From NCBI GenBank assembly GCA_036274895.1, contig DASUEU010000027.1:136883-200882 (forward strand): a stretch of 64,000 nucleotides of DNA, in the 5' to 3' direction. The stretch is from Thermoanaerobaculia bacterium (GTDB lineage Bacteria; Acidobacteriota; Thermoanaerobaculia; Multivoradales; SZUA-115). The position numbers and the translations under genes were made by a program. The notes under the pieces were generated by a model. That model was not told where the DNA came from. It saw nothing but the letters and a program-made list of their open reading frames with translations, and ran no database searches. Positions 33,907 to 41,394 of this stretch are shown piece by piece (the first letter of the stretch is position 1; each line of letters opens with the position of its first letter).

Positions 33907-35187
33907 TCACGGGTAGTAGAGATAGCAGACGCTGGCCCAGTCGCTGCAGCAGTTGCCGTCGAACTCGCAGCCCCAGTTGCAGCTGCAAGCCGCTTCCGGG
34001 GGATCTTGGCCGCAGCGGCCGTAGCAGCTGGCGTCCCAATCGTCGGGGTAGGTCTGGCAGTCGGTGACCACCCGCAGCGTGGCCCCGAAGGTGCCGCAGT
34101 AGGGAGGGACACCGCTCTGCGAGCCGCCGTTGCAGTTCTGGGCCGAGGCCGAGACCAGGGACTCGAGGTGTCCGTCCGCCACCGGGGCAGAGAACCACAG
34201 GGTGCCCATGGGATCGTCGCAGCACCAGGGGTCGTTCTCCTCGATGTACTCGCTGACCGCGATCCCCTGTCCATCACAGGCGCCGTCCTGGATCATTTCG
34301 TAGAAGGAACCCTGCCAGACCTCGACCGGATCGGTCAGATCGCCGCCGTACCAGGAGCCGTAAGGGTTCGACCACTGGGAGTCCCAGGTGTCGCAGTTGC
34401 AGACGTTGCCCCACTCGCCGCCATTTGGCTTGGAGGGCTTGGGCCCCTTGAAGCAGGTGCGATGGTCGTCCGGGCAATCCCGACCGCGGGGGCTCGAGCC
34501 GAAGTAGACCCCGATGTCGCCCGTCATGGCCCCCTGGCCTGGGGAGTGGAAGGAGTCCAGGTTGGTACTGCACACGCCGTGGCCCGCGTGGCCATTGCAT
34601 TCGAGGGCCCAGTAGCGGTTCATGAAGCGGTCGCGGCTGTAGACCAGGGCGCTGCACCGGCAGTAGTCGGGGTACCAGGAGCGCAGGCCGAGCTGCGGGG
34701 CTGGGACCGGAGGGGCCTCGGTCCGCCGTCGGCCGGACTTGAACTCGCTCGCCGTCCAGCCGGTTTCGCCCCGGAACTCCTCCTCCAGCTTCGCCAGGGA
34801 GAGCTCGAGCTGCCCGCAAAGCTCATCCAGCCCCAGCGCGAGTAGGCAACGGTCCCTTTCGACCTCGAGCACCGCCCGCTGGTAGAGCAGGTCGACCAGC
34901 CGGCCGAGGGAGGCCGAGACGCCGAGCTCCCGGGCCCGCTCGCGAACCTGCGCCTCGACCCGGTGGCGTGAGGCCGTCGCCAGCTGATGCTCGCGGCGCT
35001 CGAGGGAGGAGGCGAGGGCCAGCTTCGCCTGCGGATCGGCATCCAGCTGTGCCTTGGTCTCGCCGAGGGAGACGAGCCCACCGAGAGTTTCCCCTGCAAG
35101 GCAGGGAAGGGTGGTCGCCACCACGAGCAGGGCGGCGAGAGTCAAGAGCAGTGACGAGATTGCGCCGAGGTTTTTCGTTCTCACCAT
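33907..35187 (-). CDS. Secreted Cys-rich protein with a C-terminal somatomedin-B-like cysteine signature
   Basis: AGGAGG RBS and signal peptide (MVRTKNLGAISSLLLTLAALLVVATTLPCLAGE); >25 Cys. The C-terminus CSCNWGCEFDGNCCSDWASVC fits C-x-C-x3-C-x5-CC-x-D-[aromatic]-x3-C. Confidence 0.65.
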   Translation of the reverse strand: MVRTKNLGAISSLLLTLAALLVVATTLPCLAGETLGGLVSLGETKAQLDADPQAKLALASSLERREHQLATASRHRVEAQVRERARELGVSASLGRLVDLLYQRAVLEVERDRCLLALGLDELCGQLELSLAKLEEEFRGETGWTASEFKSGRRRTEAPPVPAPQLGLRSWYPDYCRCSALVYSRDRFMNRYWALECNGHAGHGVCSTNLDSFHSPGQGAMTGDIGVYFGSSPRGRDCPDDHRTCFKGPKPSKPNGGEWGNVCNCDTWDSQWSNPYGSWYGGDLTDPVEVWQGSFYEMIQDGACDGQGIAVSEYIEENDPWCCDDPMGTLWFSAPVADGHLESLVSASAQNCNGGSQSGVPPYCGTFGATLRVVTDCQTYPDDWDASCYGRCGQDPPEAACSCNWGCEFDGNCCSDWASVCYLYYP

Positions 35188-35287
35188 GGCACCTCCTGTG
35201 CGGTTATGGCAATGAGCGGTATATTGCCCCAAGAAGCGACCCCGCCCCGCCGCGGCGGGGCAGAGTCGATGAGAGATCCCTCCTCCG

Positions 35288-35461
35288 TCAGAACGAGCTG
35301 TTACAGCTACCGCAGTGGTGCGAGCCGTCGTGCCCGGCGGACCGATCGCAGGAGCCCTTCCAGCTGTTGGGGCAATCACCGTGGGTGGCGCCGCACTCGC
35401 CCTGATCCTCCGGGTCCTGGCTGTCCGGGGGCTGCTTCTTGGAAGTGATCTTGGGGCTCAT
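35288..35461 (-). CDS. Unannotated small ORF (57 aa) encoding a Cys/His-rich peptide (MSPKITSKKQPPDSQDPEDQGECGATHGDCPNSWKGSCDRSAGHDGSHHCGSCNSSF)
   Basis: AGGAGG sits ~8 nt upstream of the ATG; GC3 ~85%, typical of local genes. It is below the 60-aa cutoff of the ORF track. Confidence 0.45.
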   Translation of the reverse strand: MSPKITSKKQPPDSQDPEDQGECGATHGDCPNSWKGSCDRSAGHDGSHHCGSCNSSF

Positions 35462-35644
35462 GGGGGTCCTCCTGCTCCTTGGTGTGGAGTCATCCTAGAC
35501 CTTGGTGGCCCGTGGATCCCACTACCTTGGGGCGGCGAGGTGCTGGCCGCTGGGGCGGGCGAAGGGGCCGATCCTGACCCCGCCGACCTTGCGATGCCTA
35601 CGAGCGTACGTTAGTCTGCTCGGCGAACGTACGACGGAGGCCTC

Positions 35645-35866
35645 ATGCGAATCACCGCTTCCAAGCTCCGAGAGAATATCTACAGTCTCCTGGATCAAGT
35701 CCTGACCACCGGCGTGCCCATCGAGATCGAGCGGCGGGGCCGGATCATCCGGCTCGTGCCGACGGAGCCCGCCAGCAAGCTCGATCGGCTGCCGCAGCGC
35801 GACTATCTCGAGGGCGACCCGGAAGATCTCGTTCACCTCGACTGGAGCTCCGAGTGGCGACCCTGA
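35645..35866 (+). CDS. Type II antitoxin, Phd/YefM family
   Basis: MRITASKLRENIYSLLDQV Phd-like N-terminus; overlaps the downstream PIN gene. Confidence 0.75.
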   Translation: MRITASKLRENIYSLLDQVLTTGVPIEIERRGRIIRLVPTEPASKLDRLPQRDYLEGDPEDLVHLDWSSEWRP

Positions 35867-36243
35867 CCTACCTCGACACCCACGTCGTGGCCTGGCTATT
35901 CGCAGGCGAGCTGGCGCTGCTCCCCAAGGCGGTCCGGCTCCGCTTGGAAGAGGGGGACCTGGTGATCTCTCCCATGGTCACCCTGGAGCTGCAGTTCCTC
36001 TTCGAGATCCGGCGTGTCACCAGGCCCGGCCTGGAGGTGGTGGCTGCCCTCGCTGCCGAGTTGGGGCTGCGCACCTGCGACCTGCCCTTTCCCCAGGTCG
36101 TTGCCCGCGCCGCCCACCAGAGCTGGACCCGAGATCCCTTCGACCGCCTGATCACTGCCCAGGCGGCTCTCCGCGAGGCTCCCTTGCTCACCAAGGACGG
36201 AGACATCCACACGCACTATCCGCACGCGGTCTGGAGCGGGTGA
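35854..36243 (+). CDS. PIN-domain toxin (VapC-like)
   Basis: LDTHVVAW...LPFPQ...DRLITAQA PIN acidic residues; 13-bp overlap with the antitoxin. Confidence 0.7.
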   Translation: MATLTYLDTHVVAWLFAGELALLPKAVRLRLEEGDLVISPMVTLELQFLFEIRRVTRPGLEVVAALAAELGLRTCDLPFPQVVARAAHQSWTRDPFDRLITAQAALREAPLLTKDGDIHTHYPHAVWSG

Positions 36244-36495
36244 GGTGTCCGACATCTCTTCGACACCCTCCGACAGCCCTCTTGCCCTCTCCCTGGCCCC
36301 TGCTCGATCGCCCGGTCTCTTCGTAAACAGCAGAAAATAAGTGGCTTAGCTCCGGCAGCCTCAGCCCGACCCCAGCTGGCACCGCCATTGCCTCGTCTCA
36401 CGGGCGCAAGCCACCGTGGCCACGGAGCTCGAACAGCAGAAAGCAACCCCTGCGCGGGAGCGCACAACTTCGAATCCGATCGTAGGAGACCCACC

Positions 36496-36888
36496 ATGTT
36501 GAAGAAGACCCTCGTCGCCGTCCTCGCCCTCGCCGCCATCGCCAGCGCCGCCCATGCCGGCAGCACCTTCCAGCAGAGCTGTTCGCAGATCGAGTTCGTC
36601 TACTCGAGCAACCAGCCGGTGCTGCAGGCCGTCTGCCTCAAGGCCGACGGCACCACCAACTCCACCTCCCTGGTGCTCCAGGGCATCAGCAACCAGAACG
36701 GCACGCTGGTGCAGGGCACGGGAGCCAGCAGCTTCCAGAAGAGCTGCGGCAACATCCAGATCCAGGTCACCAGCCCCACCTCCGTCAACCTGACCGCCTA
36801 CTGCCGCACCTCGAGTGGTTCCTCCAACGCCACCAGCCTGCCGCTCAACAACATCGGCAACAACAACGGCGTGCTCACGGGCGGCTAG
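36496..36888 (+). CDS. Cyanovirin-N homology (CVNH) domain lectin, secreted
   Basis: Signal peptide, then two ~50-aa tandem half-domains, each with 2 Cys: FQQSCSQIEF...LQAVCLKADGTTNSTSLVLQGISNQNGTLV and FQKSCGNIQI...LTAYCRTSSGSSNATSLPLNNIGNNNGVLT. These match the CVNH pattern F..SC...L.a.C....G....s.L.L...I.N.nG.L. Confidence 0.7.
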   Translation: MLKKTLVAVLALAAIASAAHAGSTFQQSCSQIEFVYSSNQPVLQAVCLKADGTTNSTSLVLQGISNQNGTLVQGTGASSFQKSCGNIQIQVTSPTSVNLTAYCRTSSGSSNATSLPLNNIGNNNGVLTGG

Positions 36889-36903
36889 GCCGCAACCTCT
36901 CCG

Positions 36904-36931
36904 ATCCCGGGGGGCGGACGCTCCCCGGGAT
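36904..36931. terminator. GC-rich hairpin (9-bp perfect stem ATCCCGGGG/CCCCGGGAT, 10-nt loop) between convergent genes
   Basis: Perfect inverted repeat 15 nt after the CVNH stop and ~10 nt before the convergent kinase-like gene stop. There is no U-tract, as is common in high-GC genomes. Confidence 0.5.
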
Positions 36932-36941
36932 GCCGCCCTGT

Positions 36942-37568
36942 TCAGGGTGCCCAGAGGCCGCCGGTCGCTTCGAGCCAGTCAGCGATGCGATCCGCCGCCA
37001 GGGCGGGATCCCCAGCCGAAACGTCCAGCTCGAGCCGGGGCAGCAGAGAGCCCGCGGCGAGCCCCCGCAGCACTTCTTGCTCCTCGACGAAGATCGACAG
37101 GTCGCCGTACTGGCCGGGATTGCCGGACACCAGCAGCCTCTTCTCGCGGGCGGCGGCGAAGGAGTCCGGGTTGCGGGTCACCAGCACCAACCGGAAGCCC
37201 AGGGGGAGGAGCCGCTCCTCGAGCCAGTGGAAGTCGTAGCGCCGGCCGTGCTGGCGCTCTTGATAGGCCATCGTTGAGAGGTGGAAGCGGTCGACGATCC
37301 ACGAGTAGTAGCGCTGGAGCTCGAAGAGCCGTACCCAGGTGCGATAGGTCTCGAGGGCCAGCTCCTCCTCCTCGGGAAGGAAGTTGATCAGGCCGCGGCC
37401 CCAGGGGGTGTTGGTGAAGCCGCACCACTCGGCCGAGATCAGGGGTGAGTGGTAGCGGTATTTGCGCGGTCCCACCACCCGAGGATGCTCGTTGAGGGCG
37501 AAGGCGATCTCCGTCTTGCCGGTCAGGCGGGTGCCTTCGAGGATGACCTTGGGACAGAGCTTGGGCAT
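36942..37568 (-). CDS. P-loop NTPase, deoxynucleoside-kinase/thymidylate-kinase-like
   Basis: 208 aa; VILEGTRLTGKTE Walker A in a dNK-like context; DRFHLST region resembling the dNK ERS motif; RBS before the ATG at 37568. The rest of the 597-aa six-frame ORF is antisense artefact. Confidence 0.55.
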   Translation of the reverse strand: MPKLCPKVILEGTRLTGKTEIAFALNEHPRVVGPRKYRYHSPLISAEWCGFTNTPWGRGLINFLPEEEELALETYRTWVRLFELQRYYSWIVDRFHLSTMAYQERQHGRRYDFHWLEERLLPLGFRLVLVTRNPDSFAAAREKRLLVSGNPGQYGDLSIFVEEQEVLRGLAAGSLLPRLELDVSAGDPALAADRIADWLEATGGLWAP

Positions 37569-38627: not shown

Positions 38628-38983
38628 ACGGCGGGGGAGCCTAGCAGGCGGTGGTCTGGGGTTCGAGCGAGGAGGCTGGAAAAATGGCGACGGTTTTGCC
38701 ATTCCCCCCTTCTGTCTCGGCAACAGCGCCGCCATCGTGTCGGTCGTCTCGCCGGGATCCCCATCCGGGCGCTGTCACTCGGGGTGGGCGACCGTCCTCT
38801 CCGGAGCCCACTTCAACTGCGATTGTTGCGTCTTTGCGTCTTTTTCACCTGGCTCAAGATTTGCAGTGTTCCAGTTTCCACTTCCGAGCTGCACTATAGG
38901 GATGCACAGCCATTCCCCGGCCAACCGCGGCGTTCGGGGAGACCTCAGTTCCCGACACCGTCGCTTTCGAAGGAGGAAGAACG

Positions 38984-41394
38984 TGAAGGACAGAACCCTA
39001 CCCATCCCACTCGACGCCCGGCGGCGGGCGACGAGGCGCGCGGCCCTCGCCACCGCGCTCGCGCTGGTCCTCCTGACCGGCGGCTCCGCTCTGGCCGGCC
39101 ACGACGACGTTGGTGAGAAGTGGCAGGCCCAGGGTCCGGCCCCCAACACCGAGGGGCAGACCGAGAACGTGACCCCCGACAACCAGGTCGTGGGTGCCGT
39201 CCACGTCGTGGTCGCTCATCCCACCTCGCCGAGCACCCTCTACGTCGGATCGGTGAACGGCGGCGTGTGGAAGACCACCAACGCCACCTCCAACAACATC
39301 AAGTGGAAGCCCCTGACGGATGACCTGGGCTCGCCCTCGATCGGTGCCCTCGACATGGATCCCAGCGTGCCCAGCCACAAGACCCTGGTGGCCGGCATCG
39401 GCGGCTTCTCGAGCCTGGGCCGCTTGCGGGGCGCGGCGATCGGCCTGCTGCGCACGACCAACGGCGGCGAGAGCTGGACCGTGATCAACGGTGGCGGCAC
39501 CCTTCTCGGCAAGAACATCTCCGGCGTGGCGGCCCGGGGCAACACGCTGGTGGTTTCAGTCAACACCGCCGACGCCTTCACCTTCCCCAACATCGGCATC
39601 TTCCGCTCGGCGGACGGTGGCGCCACCTTCACCCAGATCTCAGTCGGCAACGGCGCCGGCACCGGTCTGCCCGGCGGCGTCGCCAACGATCTGGTGGGGG
39701 ATCCCCTGAACCCGAGCCGCCTGTTCACCAGCATCCTCTTCGCCAACTCGCTCGGCGGACTGAACGGCGTGTACCGCAGCGACGACACCGGGGCCACCTG
39801 GACCAAGGTCAGCAGCCCGGCCATGGATGCTCTGCTGATCTCGGGCGTCACCAGCAACGTGGAGTTCGCCGTCGGTCGCCACAACAACGTCTATGCGGCG
39901 ATTGCCAACAGCGGTCGGCTGGCCGGCGTGTTCCGCTCGGGCGACGGCGGCGCCACCTGGACGGCGATGGACCTGCCGCTGACCAACGAGGGCTCCCTGA
40001 TCGGCATCCACCCCGGCGGCCAGGCCTCGATCCACCTGTCGATCGTGGCTGACCCGACCGACGCCCACATCGTCTACATCGGCGGCGACCGCCAGCCCCT
40101 GTTCAACGAGGTGGCCAACCCGCCGCTTTCGGACTTCCCGAACTCGATCGGCGCCGTCGACTTCTCCGGCCGCCTCTTCCGCGGTAACGCCTCCTCGCCC
40201 GCGGGCAGCCAGTGGGTGCACCTCACCCACTCTTCGAGCCTCGGCGCTCCCGGCGGCGGCACGGCCTCCTCGAGCTCGCCCCACGCCGACTCCCGCGAGA
40301 TGACCTTCGACGCCCACGGCCGGCTGATCGAGACCGACGACGGCGGCATCTTCCGGCGCTCGAACCCCCGCGACAACACCGGTGACTGGACCTCGCTCAA
40401 CGGCAACCTGCAGGTCGGCGAGTTCCACGCCACCACTTCGGACGAGCTGTCGAACATCGTCTTCGGCGGTACCCAGGACATCGGCACGGACGTCCAGGAC
40501 CTGCCCTTCGACCTCGAGTGGTCGACCCTCTTGGGCGGCGATGGCAGCGACACCGCCGTCGACGACGTCTCGAACCCGGCCTTCTCCACCCGCTTCTCCT
40601 CCGCCCAGTTCCTCCAAGCCTTCAACCGCACCTTCTGGGACGCTGCCAACAACTTCCTGGGCTTCGACTTCCCGACCCGCACGCCGATTGGCGGCAGCCC
40701 GGCGATGGTGGCCCAGTTCTACACCCCGGTGCGGATCAACAACGTCGACAAGAACCGCCTGATCTTCGGCGCCAACAACGGCGTTTACGAGAGCCAGGAC
40801 CAGGGCTTCACCGTGCTGCGCATCGGCGCGGGCATCGTGGTCACCGGCAACCCCAGTGACCCCATCGGCTACGGCGCCACCGGCAACCCCGACATCCTCT
40901 ACCTCGGCACCACCGACGACGTCTGGGTGCGCACCGCCGCCCATCCGGCGCCGCTGGTGCTCTCCGCCACCTTCCCGGGCAACGGCACCGGCCGCGCCGT
41001 GCGCGACATCGCCATCGATCCGGACAACGGCAACCAGGCCTTCGCGATGAACCTGGGCGGTGTCTACCGCACCCAGGATGCCGGCGCCACCTGGACGGAC
41101 GTCACCGGCAACCTCCTCACCTTCCCCATCACCACTCCCCGCAGCCTCGCCCTGGCCCGCACTTCCGAGGGCGACGCCATCGTGGTCGGCACCGTGGGCG
41201 GCGTCTACATCGCCACGGCGGACGACGGCTTCGCGGTCTGGCAGAAGCTGGGCGAGGATCTGCCCAACACCCACGTCTTCGAGCTGGAGTACGACGCCAG
41301 CACGGACACCCTCGTCGCCGGCACCATCGGTCGCGCCACCTGGAAGCAGAAGAAGCTCTCGGAGACGATCGAGGAGATCAACAACGATGACTAG
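38984..41394 (+). CDS. Secreted BNR/Asp-box repeat beta-propeller protein (sialidase/GH74-like fold)
   Basis: GTG start after a GAAGGAGGA RBS; signal peptide; >=6 Asp-box motifs (SADGGATF, SDDTGATW, SGDGGATW, TNGGESW, TQDAGATW, SQDQGFT). Confidence 0.7.

Follow-up and report, generated by a model that had tools for sequence, protein, structure and literature searches.

A stand-alone chromosomal gene for a CVNH-family protein with a predicted export signal in a Thermoanaerobaculia bacterium

The stretch of DNA analysed here, hereafter the window, comprises 64,000 nucleotides of a soil bacterium of the class Thermoanaerobaculia (Acidobacteriota), corresponding to positions 136,883 to 200,882 on the forward strand of contig DASUEU010000027.1 (GenBank assembly GCA_036274895.1); all coordinates are counted from its first letter. 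The gene under study encodes a protein of the cyanovirin-N homology (CVNH) family and occupies 36496..36888 on the plus strand, where an ATG opens a frame of 130 codons closed by a TAG (36886..36888). A Shine-Dalgarno sequence, AGGAGA, could be read at 36484..36489 (+), 6 nt 5' of the ATG, and is kept in the genome of the closest relative, MAG040 (GCA_044869955.1), whose CVNH protein is 83% identical. A longer, TTG-initiated frame from 36388 was rejected, as the homologs all begin at the position of the ATG. The gene was assigned by matches to Pfam PF08881 and NCBIfam NF052356, by the G+C content of its third codon positions (GC3, 0.96) and by an identical protein at NCBI. It is a stand-alone, monocistronic, chromosomal gene, because the neighbours differ in every lineage examined and a hairpin lies 3' of the stop at most loci. 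The original prediction, made from the letters of the window, had spoken of a high-GC chromosome, and the window indeed has a GC content of 70.2%. We consider it very probable that the locus holds a resident, stand-alone gene for an exported protein of the CVNH family.

By every testable defining feature the protein is a member of the CVNH-domain family. It was matched by the Pfam model PF08881 (CVNH) in two stretches at 52.8 bits (gathering threshold 24.5 bits, E=7.2e-14), which was the search suggested in the original prediction, and by the NCBIfam equivalog NF052356, 'mannose-binding lectin', at 84.7 bits (cut-off 80 bits, E=5.9e-24, profile positions 1-102 of 103). The top sequence matches in the PDB were microvirin (2y1s), the fern protein CrCVNH (2jzj), Cyt-CVNH (5k79) and cyanovirin-N (CV-N), and a profile of the family matched CV-N, microvirin and Cyt-CVNH at E-values of 1e-12 to 1e-5. 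The duplicated half-domain with two cysteines, which had been read from the sequence at the outset, was found as well. Aligned with each other, the halves of the mature protein score 80, versus -4.9 +/- 9.8 for 500 shuffles (z=8.7, none of the 500 as good). Each half of this tandem duplication of a ~50-residue half-domain carries two cysteines, Cys29 and Cys47 in the first and Cys84 and Cys103 in the second, and all four are invariant in 46 family sequences and align with C8, C22, C58 and C73 of CV-N. The protein is already known. Pfam and the NCBIfam/PGAP pipelines name it CVNH, and the exact sequence (100% identity; P0001 among our matches) is deposited in NCBI nr as 'MAG TPA: CVNH domain-containing protein [Thermoanaerobaculia bacterium]'. 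The JGI label 'opacity protein-like surface antigen', carried by two homologs, was set aside, being unsupported by any domain match.

The N-terminus reads MLKK, followed by 15 hydrophobic residues, TLVAVLALAAIASA, and by AHA, after which the sequence continues with GS. From this layout of n-, h- and c-regions, with A-x-A at -3/-1, we infer a Sec-type signal peptide of residues 1-21 (MLKKTLVAVLALAAIASAAHA, followed by GS; 36496..36558, +), which signal peptidase I would cut after Ala21. The same layout with the A-x-A site is common to 45 homologs, and no lipobox cysteine was found in the signal peptide. The mature CVNH domain, residues 22-130 (~109 aa; 36559..36885, +), consists of two pseudo-repeats and was delimited by the internal repeat, the cysteines, an AlphaFold2 model and the fold matches. 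The model was built on 46 family sequences. Its mean confidence (predicted local distance difference test, pLDDT) was 82.8 overall and 86-95 over the domain, where ten strands follow each other in the order seen in CV-N, and residues 11-22 were disordered, with pLDDT below 50. A Foldseek comparison of the predicted model with the PDB gave 20 significant matches, all of them CV-N or CVNH proteins, while the 21st match had E=0.39. Template-modelling (TM) scores normalised to the target were 0.65-0.83 for these top 20, the best being 0.75-0.83 at a root-mean-square deviation (rmsd) of 2.1-2.7 Å. As far as a predicted model can tell, the protein matches the CV-N fold of two lobes, each with a three-stranded sheet and a beta-hairpin, in agreement with the fold that had been expected. 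Family models, PDB matches and predicted fold thus all point towards the secreted CVNH-family lectin that was first proposed. Four N-x-S/T sequons occur in the mature lectin (36562..36885); they probably arise incidentally from CVNH motifs rich in Asn, Ser and Thr and are not read as glycosylation sites.

The original prediction had named a 'domain-swapped beta-sandwich' as the fold to look for, and this part of it did not stand, since swapping is not the defining state of the family. The hinge region of CV-N is held responsible for domain swapping (PMC11952781). In the window protein the hinge is VQGTGASS, Pro-free and two residues longer than that of CV-N, and the swap hinge of CV-N type (CV-N residues ~48-55, with Pro51) was not recovered. 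Because the hinge lacks proline and is longer than the WQPSN of CV-N (Pro51), resembling that of monomeric microvirin, the protein would be expected to be a monomer.

Among solved structures microvirin is the closest. It was the best single-domain sequence match in the PDB (E 7.6e-5 with the single sequence, 5.6e-12 with the profile), and it is described as a monomeric lectin with two domains that are 35% identical (PMC7077325). Both proteins have a CVNH fold of ~108 residues with a Pro-free hinge, and in both the segments between cysteines are longer than in CV-N, with insertions ('YDPDST' and 'GDGEQS') in the same places. Identity at the level of the fold is about 31%. Microvirin is acidic, whereas the window protein has hardly any charge and, unlike microvirin, keeps the loop motif in each of its halves. 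Two of the ten residues that we take to be the contacts of microvirin with dimannose are identical in the window protein (N66, T105). The predicted model shares with CV-N of Nostoc ellipsosporum (PDB 2ezm, 6x7h) the same two-lobed, pseudo-symmetric fold (TM 0.83 on the target, rmsd 2.2 Å over ~107 residues), and the tandem half-domain duplication and the homologous positions of the four cysteines are common to both proteins. Sequence identity is 27-29%. In comparison with CV-N, the window protein has a four-residue insertion in each half and two extra residues in the hinge, does not keep Pro51 or the charged residues E41, E56, R76 and E23, and carries a Sec signal peptide suited to a diderm, high-GC, non-cyanobacterial host. 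Cyt-CVNH of Cyanothece 7424 (5k79), TbCVNH, NcCVNH, GzCVNH, CrCVNH and MoCVNH3 were significant fold matches with the same Pfam domain; Cyt-CVNH and the fungal and fern proteins are 20-33% identical to the window protein. Many eukaryotic CVNH proteins reside in the cytoplasm or are fused to further domains (e.g., LysM), whereas the window protein is a single exported domain.

The actual subfamily of the window protein is formed by uncharacterised, exported CVNH proteins of ~130 aa from soil and marine bacteria, i.e., Xanthobacteraceae, Pseudolabrys, Rhizomicrobium, Caulobacter, Nitrosovibrio, the Roseobacter group and Acidobacteriota. These are 45-83% identical to it and alike in length, signal peptide and invariant residues; the differences are at the level of lineages only and concern the genomic context and an upstream sigma-54 motif found in part of the acidobacterial clade. 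The residues invariant in the subfamily are I64, N66, G69, L71, F80, Q81, S83, C84, G85, I120, N122, G125 and L127. They cluster in two equivalent loops, G63-ISNQNGT-L71 and N119-IGNNNGV-L127, where each half presents the motif GI[SG]N[QN]NGxL, and in the stretch F80-Q-K-S-C-G85. In CV-N, sugars are bound by segments 41-44, 50-56 and 74-78 and by segments 1-7, 22-26 and 92-95 (PMC11952781). The invariant stretches correspond to, or adjoin, the segments 41-44, 92-95 and 50-56. As both loops are invariant, both putative sites look constrained, and the protein may be a bivalent lectin that cross-links glycans.

Several observations weigh against a straightforward reading of the protein as an exported, mannose-binding lectin. 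The score for NF052356 exceeds the cut-off by a small margin. When the alignments were mapped by hand, each CV-N site shared about 4 of 16 residues with the window protein (N66, S78, F80 and T105; F25, Q27, C47 and N122), so that identity at the sugar-binding segments is low, and several other positions carry conservative changes. The same mapping places S65, K82, S106 and L48 at the positions of E41, E56, R76 and E23. The mature protein consists to 59% of S, T, N, Q and G, with 5 of 108 residues charged, and this near absence of charge is unlike CV-N. Finally, a Sec signal in a diderm is evidence for export as far as the periplasm only and not for release from the cell. Since few residues of the CV-N sites are kept and the charged ones are lost, mannose specificity is uncertain; we give it a little less than an even chance. 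Lectin activity as such appears probable to us from the sequence. Ligands of alpha-mannoside type remain the likeliest single choice, at roughly a coin's toss, going by NF052356 and the nearest characterised relatives.

The weak conservation of the sugar contacts, as mapped by hand, also feeds a different explanation, namely that the CVNH fold here binds a protein or another non-carbohydrate ligand and is not a lectin. Homologs of the family vary strongly at the binding-site residues (PMC11952781), and the secreted fungal protein SsCVNH is reported to target a plant peroxidase (PMC11064801). On the other hand, CV-N, microvirin and Cyt-CVNH, which are all the bacterial members characterised, are lectins of mannose type and at the same time the closest matches, the threshold of the mannose-binding lectin equivalog was passed, and the invariant, polar loops rich in Asn, Ser, Thr and Gln would suit the binding of sugar hydroxyls. 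We therefore regard a non-lectin as unlikely and retain the lectin as the working description of the protein.

A word-indexed search returned 198 relatives, nearly all of 125-137 aa and most from soil and water metagenomes; PF08881 was flagged in each of the 120 listed of these 198. A profile search of 1.84 billion cluster representatives gave 665 clusters at E<=1e-3, of which 221 had E<=1e-10 and 26 had E<=1e-30. The CVNH superfamily is small. Among 185,579 species, each represented by one genome, 56 loci encode a relative. The carriers were Thermoanaerobaculia and other Acidobacteriota, Xanthobacteraceae, Pseudolabrys and Rhizomicrobium, Caulobacter (including the isolates AP07, Root655 and UNC358MFTsu5.1), Nitrosovibrio sp. 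Nv6, members of the Roseobacter group (Sulfitobacter, Phaeobacter, Pseudophaeobacter), some Gammaproteobacteria, and one metagenome-assembled genome (MAG) each of Leptospirales and Geobacter. Cyanobacterial carriers were a plasmid of Scytonema HK-05, Nostoc ATCC 43529 and Microcoleaceae. Hence, the sporadic occurrence that had been claimed at the start is borne out by the low counts (56 loci in 185,579 species, 665 clusters in 1.84 billion), although the family extends beyond cyanobacteria, fungi and ferns. In a literature search on CVNH, for which subscription journals were mostly outside the coverage, CVNH proteins of non-cyanobacterial bacteria were not addressed. The exported ~130-aa proteins are an unstudied, but already catalogued, subfamily.

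Two of the cyanobacterial relatives differed in their layout. In Scytonema sp. HK-05 (plasmid1, locus L062) and in a Microcoleaceae MAG (L063) they lie at the end of stop-to-stop frames of 639 and 533 codons, respectively, possibly belonging to a multidomain protein. There, the first ~20 residues of both half-domains are nearly identical, following the pattern S[RT]FQNSCTNISI[ND]GDVL[SF]A.CAD, which suggests a recent internal duplication or gene conversion.

The gene is directly preceded by a toxin-antitoxin pair, a Phd/YefM antitoxin at 35645..35866 and a PIN toxin at 35854..36243. Further upstream, an open reading frame (ORF) at 33907..35379 (-) encodes a Cys-rich protein of 490 aa with a Somatomedin-B match, so the toxin-antitoxin genes and the secreted Cys-rich protein that had been pointed out nearby are in place. 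From this setting it had been suggested that the lectin gene is a horizontally acquired cargo, and the idea that it arrived recently as part of an accessory island, flagged by toxin-antitoxin genes, deserves to be weighed. The Phd/PIN pair next to the gene fits such an island, as does a certain turnover in the neighbourhood, where the gene at 36942..37568 is replaced in MAG040 and an additional AAA_14/DUF4143 gene is present there. The patchy distribution over phyla fits too, with 55-63% identity between proteins of Acidobacteriota and Proteobacteria and with acidobacterial sequences in three places of a neighbour-joining (NJ) tree.

The composition of the gene and its surroundings speak against a recent arrival. 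The GC3 of the CVNH gene is the highest in the neighbourhood (0.81-0.93 in the other local genes). Its total GC is lower, 65%, because a GC at first codon positions (GC1) of 0.50 reflects a protein rich in Ser, Thr, Asn and Gln. No tRNA was found in the window, no local GC step was seen, and no integrase or transposase occurred among the neighbours scanned. The whole block is shared with MAG040, where genes for TetR, MacB, ABC, HlyD, the Somatomedin-B protein, Phd, PIN and CVNH are likewise followed by those for an O-methyltransferase and a sortilin/BNR protein. Identity between the window and MAG040 is 81-95% for the flanking proteins, a range that includes the 83% of the CVNH protein, and not only the gene, but also its leader, promoter motif and hairpin are found in MAG040. 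A recent island would be expected to stand out in composition, to carry mobility genes or be bordered by a tRNA, and to be missing from close relatives; none of these marks was observed. In the NJ tree the window protein and MAG040 join with 95% bootstrap inside a five-sequence acidobacterial group (58%). With a GC3 of 0.96 and full synteny with MAG040, a recent acquisition as cargo is not upheld, and we judge it quite improbable.

An older event is another matter. The NJ phylogeny, the check that had been proposed for a horizontal origin, placed the other acidobacterial sequences with Nitrosovibrio and Geobacter and with Leptospirales and Gammaproteobacteria, which makes three places in all. 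Groups at the level of genera (Caulobacter, the Roseobacter group, Xanthobacteraceae) were coherent, and the deep nodes were almost without support. Together with the identity between phyla, the tree suggests old inter-phylum transfers followed by vertical descent, and leaves recent acquisition unsupported; old transfer is offered as a suggestion only, because the deep nodes are so poorly supported. In three contigs of Xanthobacteraceae type (L006, L008, L009) the gene sits in a fixed slot, tig-clpP-clpX-lon / yjeF(nnr)-glnB-glnA, and this core housekeeping slot shows stable vertical inheritance there. Elsewhere, the neighbours were a MacB-type permease and a multicopper oxidase (L004) or genes of fatty-acid and amino-acid metabolism (L005). 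As the neighbours differ between lineages, the CVNH gene has no conserved partner.

This genomic setting also bears on a role in antiviral defence. By analogy with CV-N, the protein could be an anti-phage factor; the name of CV-N and its in vitro activity against enveloped animal viruses (PMC11952781) suggest it, and a toxin-antitoxin pair adjoins the gene. The homologs, however, lie in housekeeping neighbourhoods, such as the Xanthobacteraceae slot, and not in defence islands, and a conserved partner gene is missing. Moreover, CV-N acts on the high-mannose N-glycans of enveloped eukaryotic viruses, and tailed phages have no such glycans. A defence function seems to us highly improbable, and we keep to the resident gene for an exported lectin.

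Some of the neighbouring genes deserve a description of their own. The product of the Cys-rich ORF at 33907..35379 (-) is probably secreted and has its Somatomedin B domain (PF01033, 26.3 bits vs a threshold of 23.1) at the C-terminus; it is 85% conserved in MAG040 and had no match in the NCBIfam scan. Vitronectin and the ENPP proteins of animals are the best-known carriers of the Somatomedin B domain. At 38737..41394 (+) lies a gene for a large, secreted-looking protein of 885 aa with weak repeats of Sortilin-Vps10/BNR type, 87% conserved in MAG040. Immediately downstream of the CVNH gene, 36942..37568 (-) encodes a P-loop-like protein of 208 aa with a weak thymidylate-kinase match only. Its place in MAG040 is taken by an unrelated gene for 256 aa without a Pfam match (L001 8453..9223, -), which leaves a variable slot of gene size between the CVNH hairpin and the O-methyltransferase gene. 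The AAA_14/DUF4143 ATPase gene of MAG040 (L001 10617..11768, -) lies between the O-methyltransferase and the sortilin/BNR-like gene and is absent from that place in the window.

Downstream of the stop codon there is a GC-rich stem-loop, ATCCCGGGGGGC-GGAC-GCTCCCCGGGAT, at 36904..36931 (no strand assigned), with 12 base pairs including one G.U (G-T in DNA) and a predicted free energy of -24.8 kcal/mol. It begins 15 nt after the stop and lies within the 53-nt gap to the convergent gene that ends at 36942. In MAG040 the stem is kept, although the loop has changed from GGAC to ATCT, the wobble pair has moved, and the outermost A-T pair has become C-G, a compensatory change. The element had been described as a perfect hairpin terminator. 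The hairpin itself is where it had been placed, but one pair is G-T, and for want of a following U-tract it falls short of a canonical intrinsic terminator. A T-run 3' of the stem was found on neither strand (GCCGCCCTG follows) and the terminator scan made no call, which counts against termination at this site. Across the family, a stem-loop with z<-2 was present within 70 nt of the stop in 35 of 57 loci, and in many of the proteobacterial cases a genuine T-tract is present. These stem-loops after the stop indicate that the gene is a self-contained transcription unit. The hairpin is a probable transcript-end or stabilising element, and may be a weak or bidirectional terminator or a 3' stabiliser.

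Upstream, a probable sigma-54 (-24/-12) promoter, TGGCACcgccaTTGC, was located at 36377..36391 (+), an exact TGGCAC-N5-TTGC starting 119 nt 5' of the ATG. This is the sole exact match in the window on both strands, where 0.12 were expected; a match also turned up in 12 of 100 shuffles. When about 470 kb of fetched loci were scanned on both strands, only three exact matches emerged, each beginning 110-119 nt before a CVNH start codon and in the same orientation as the gene. These are the one in the window, one in MAG040 (L010 3891..3905) and one in the Acidobacteriota MFD01213 locus (L029 3884..3898), at 110 and 117 nt in the two latter loci. The MFD01213 locus comes from an acidobacterial MAG with a CVNH protein 62% identical to ours, is not syntenic with the window, and has upstream DNA that is otherwise unalignable. 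Relaxed matches (8-9 of 10 positions) at some proteobacterial homologs were rejected, as they occur at background frequency (0.10 and 0.015 per 360 nt).

Other signals in this region were few. A sigma-70 promoter scan of 36000..37300, including the 252-nt upstream spacer, found none, and no inverted repeat of at least 10 nt was found upstream. Two facts weigh against sigma-54 control: no such motif precedes the proteobacterial homologs or two further acidobacterial ones, and the activator signatures GAFTGA and GESGxGK (Walker) were not found in six-frame translations of the window. On balance, a sigma-54 promoter for some members of the acidobacterial clade is somewhat better than an even proposition, judged by the motif and its placement. 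The predicted leader of ~94 nt contains a segment (36414..36464, +) with two palindromes, CCGTGGCCACGG at 36414..36425 and TGCGC-GGGA-GCGCA at 36451..36464. Both are kept in MAG040, where the pairwise alignment shows them as conserved blocks with diverged DNA between. The sequence 36402..36500 folds no better than shuffles (z=+0.39). An Rfam E-value scan of 35400..37100 was empty, and so no known riboswitch or leader is recognised. The only terminator-like calls, made on the minus strand at TGCGC-GGGA-GCGCA, were discarded, since no minus-strand gene ends there.

The following course of events would be consistent with these observations. In the lineage of the window, transcription would start at the sigma-54 promoter, making expression dependent on an activator, and the GC-rich hairpin downstream of the stop codon would either terminate or stabilise the transcript. 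The precursor would be taken by Sec via its 21-residue signal peptide and cleaved by signal peptidase I after AHA. In the periplasm the disulfides C29-C47 and C84-C103 would form, as homology to CV-N predicts, and the ~109-residue product would be an elongated, two-lobed monomer with a Gly-rich hinge. Each lobe would carry a glycan-binding loop, GISNQNGTL in one and NIGNNNGVL in the other, these being the most conserved parts of the family, and the protein may thus bind and bridge oligosaccharides, most likely with terminal residues of alpha-mannoside type. Candidate ligands are the envelope or exopolysaccharide of the producer itself, as proposed for microvirin, or fungal and other mannans in soil. 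Microvirin binds the lipopolysaccharide of its producer and a role in colony formation has been proposed, the natural roles of such lectins being otherwise largely unknown (PMC4390846). By analogy, microvirin would be the best precedent for a biological role, and fungal mannans in soil an equally reasonable target.

The classification of the protein is unchanged by this work, because the exact sequence is already annotated as CVNH in NCBI, and the significance is small beyond confirming the first reading. What is added is the sigma-54 motif, the evidence for a resident gene, a conserved hairpin without U-tract and the taxonomic spread with cultured carriers. A broader proposal can be made only tentatively, and we hold it to be rather unlikely: that the nearly uncharged, Asn/Ser/Thr/Gln-rich subfamily of ~130 aa in Acidobacteriota, Alphaproteobacteria and others, with its two equally conserved loops, recognises a ligand other than Man-alpha(1-2)Man, for instance an exopolysaccharide of bacteria or a glycan of fungal walls, that it was passed between soil phyla, and that it came under sigma-54 control in part of the Acidobacteriota. 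Were all of this true, the protein would be a lectin of new specificity that serves in matrix or adhesion and whose expression is regulated. CVNH lectins are of interest as antiviral leads. The exported subfamily is well populated in diderms of soil and sea, including cultured Caulobacter, Nitrosovibrio and Phaeobacter, which makes it tractable for questions about the role of these lectins in the producer, and the sigma-54 motif provides one testable hint about their regulation.

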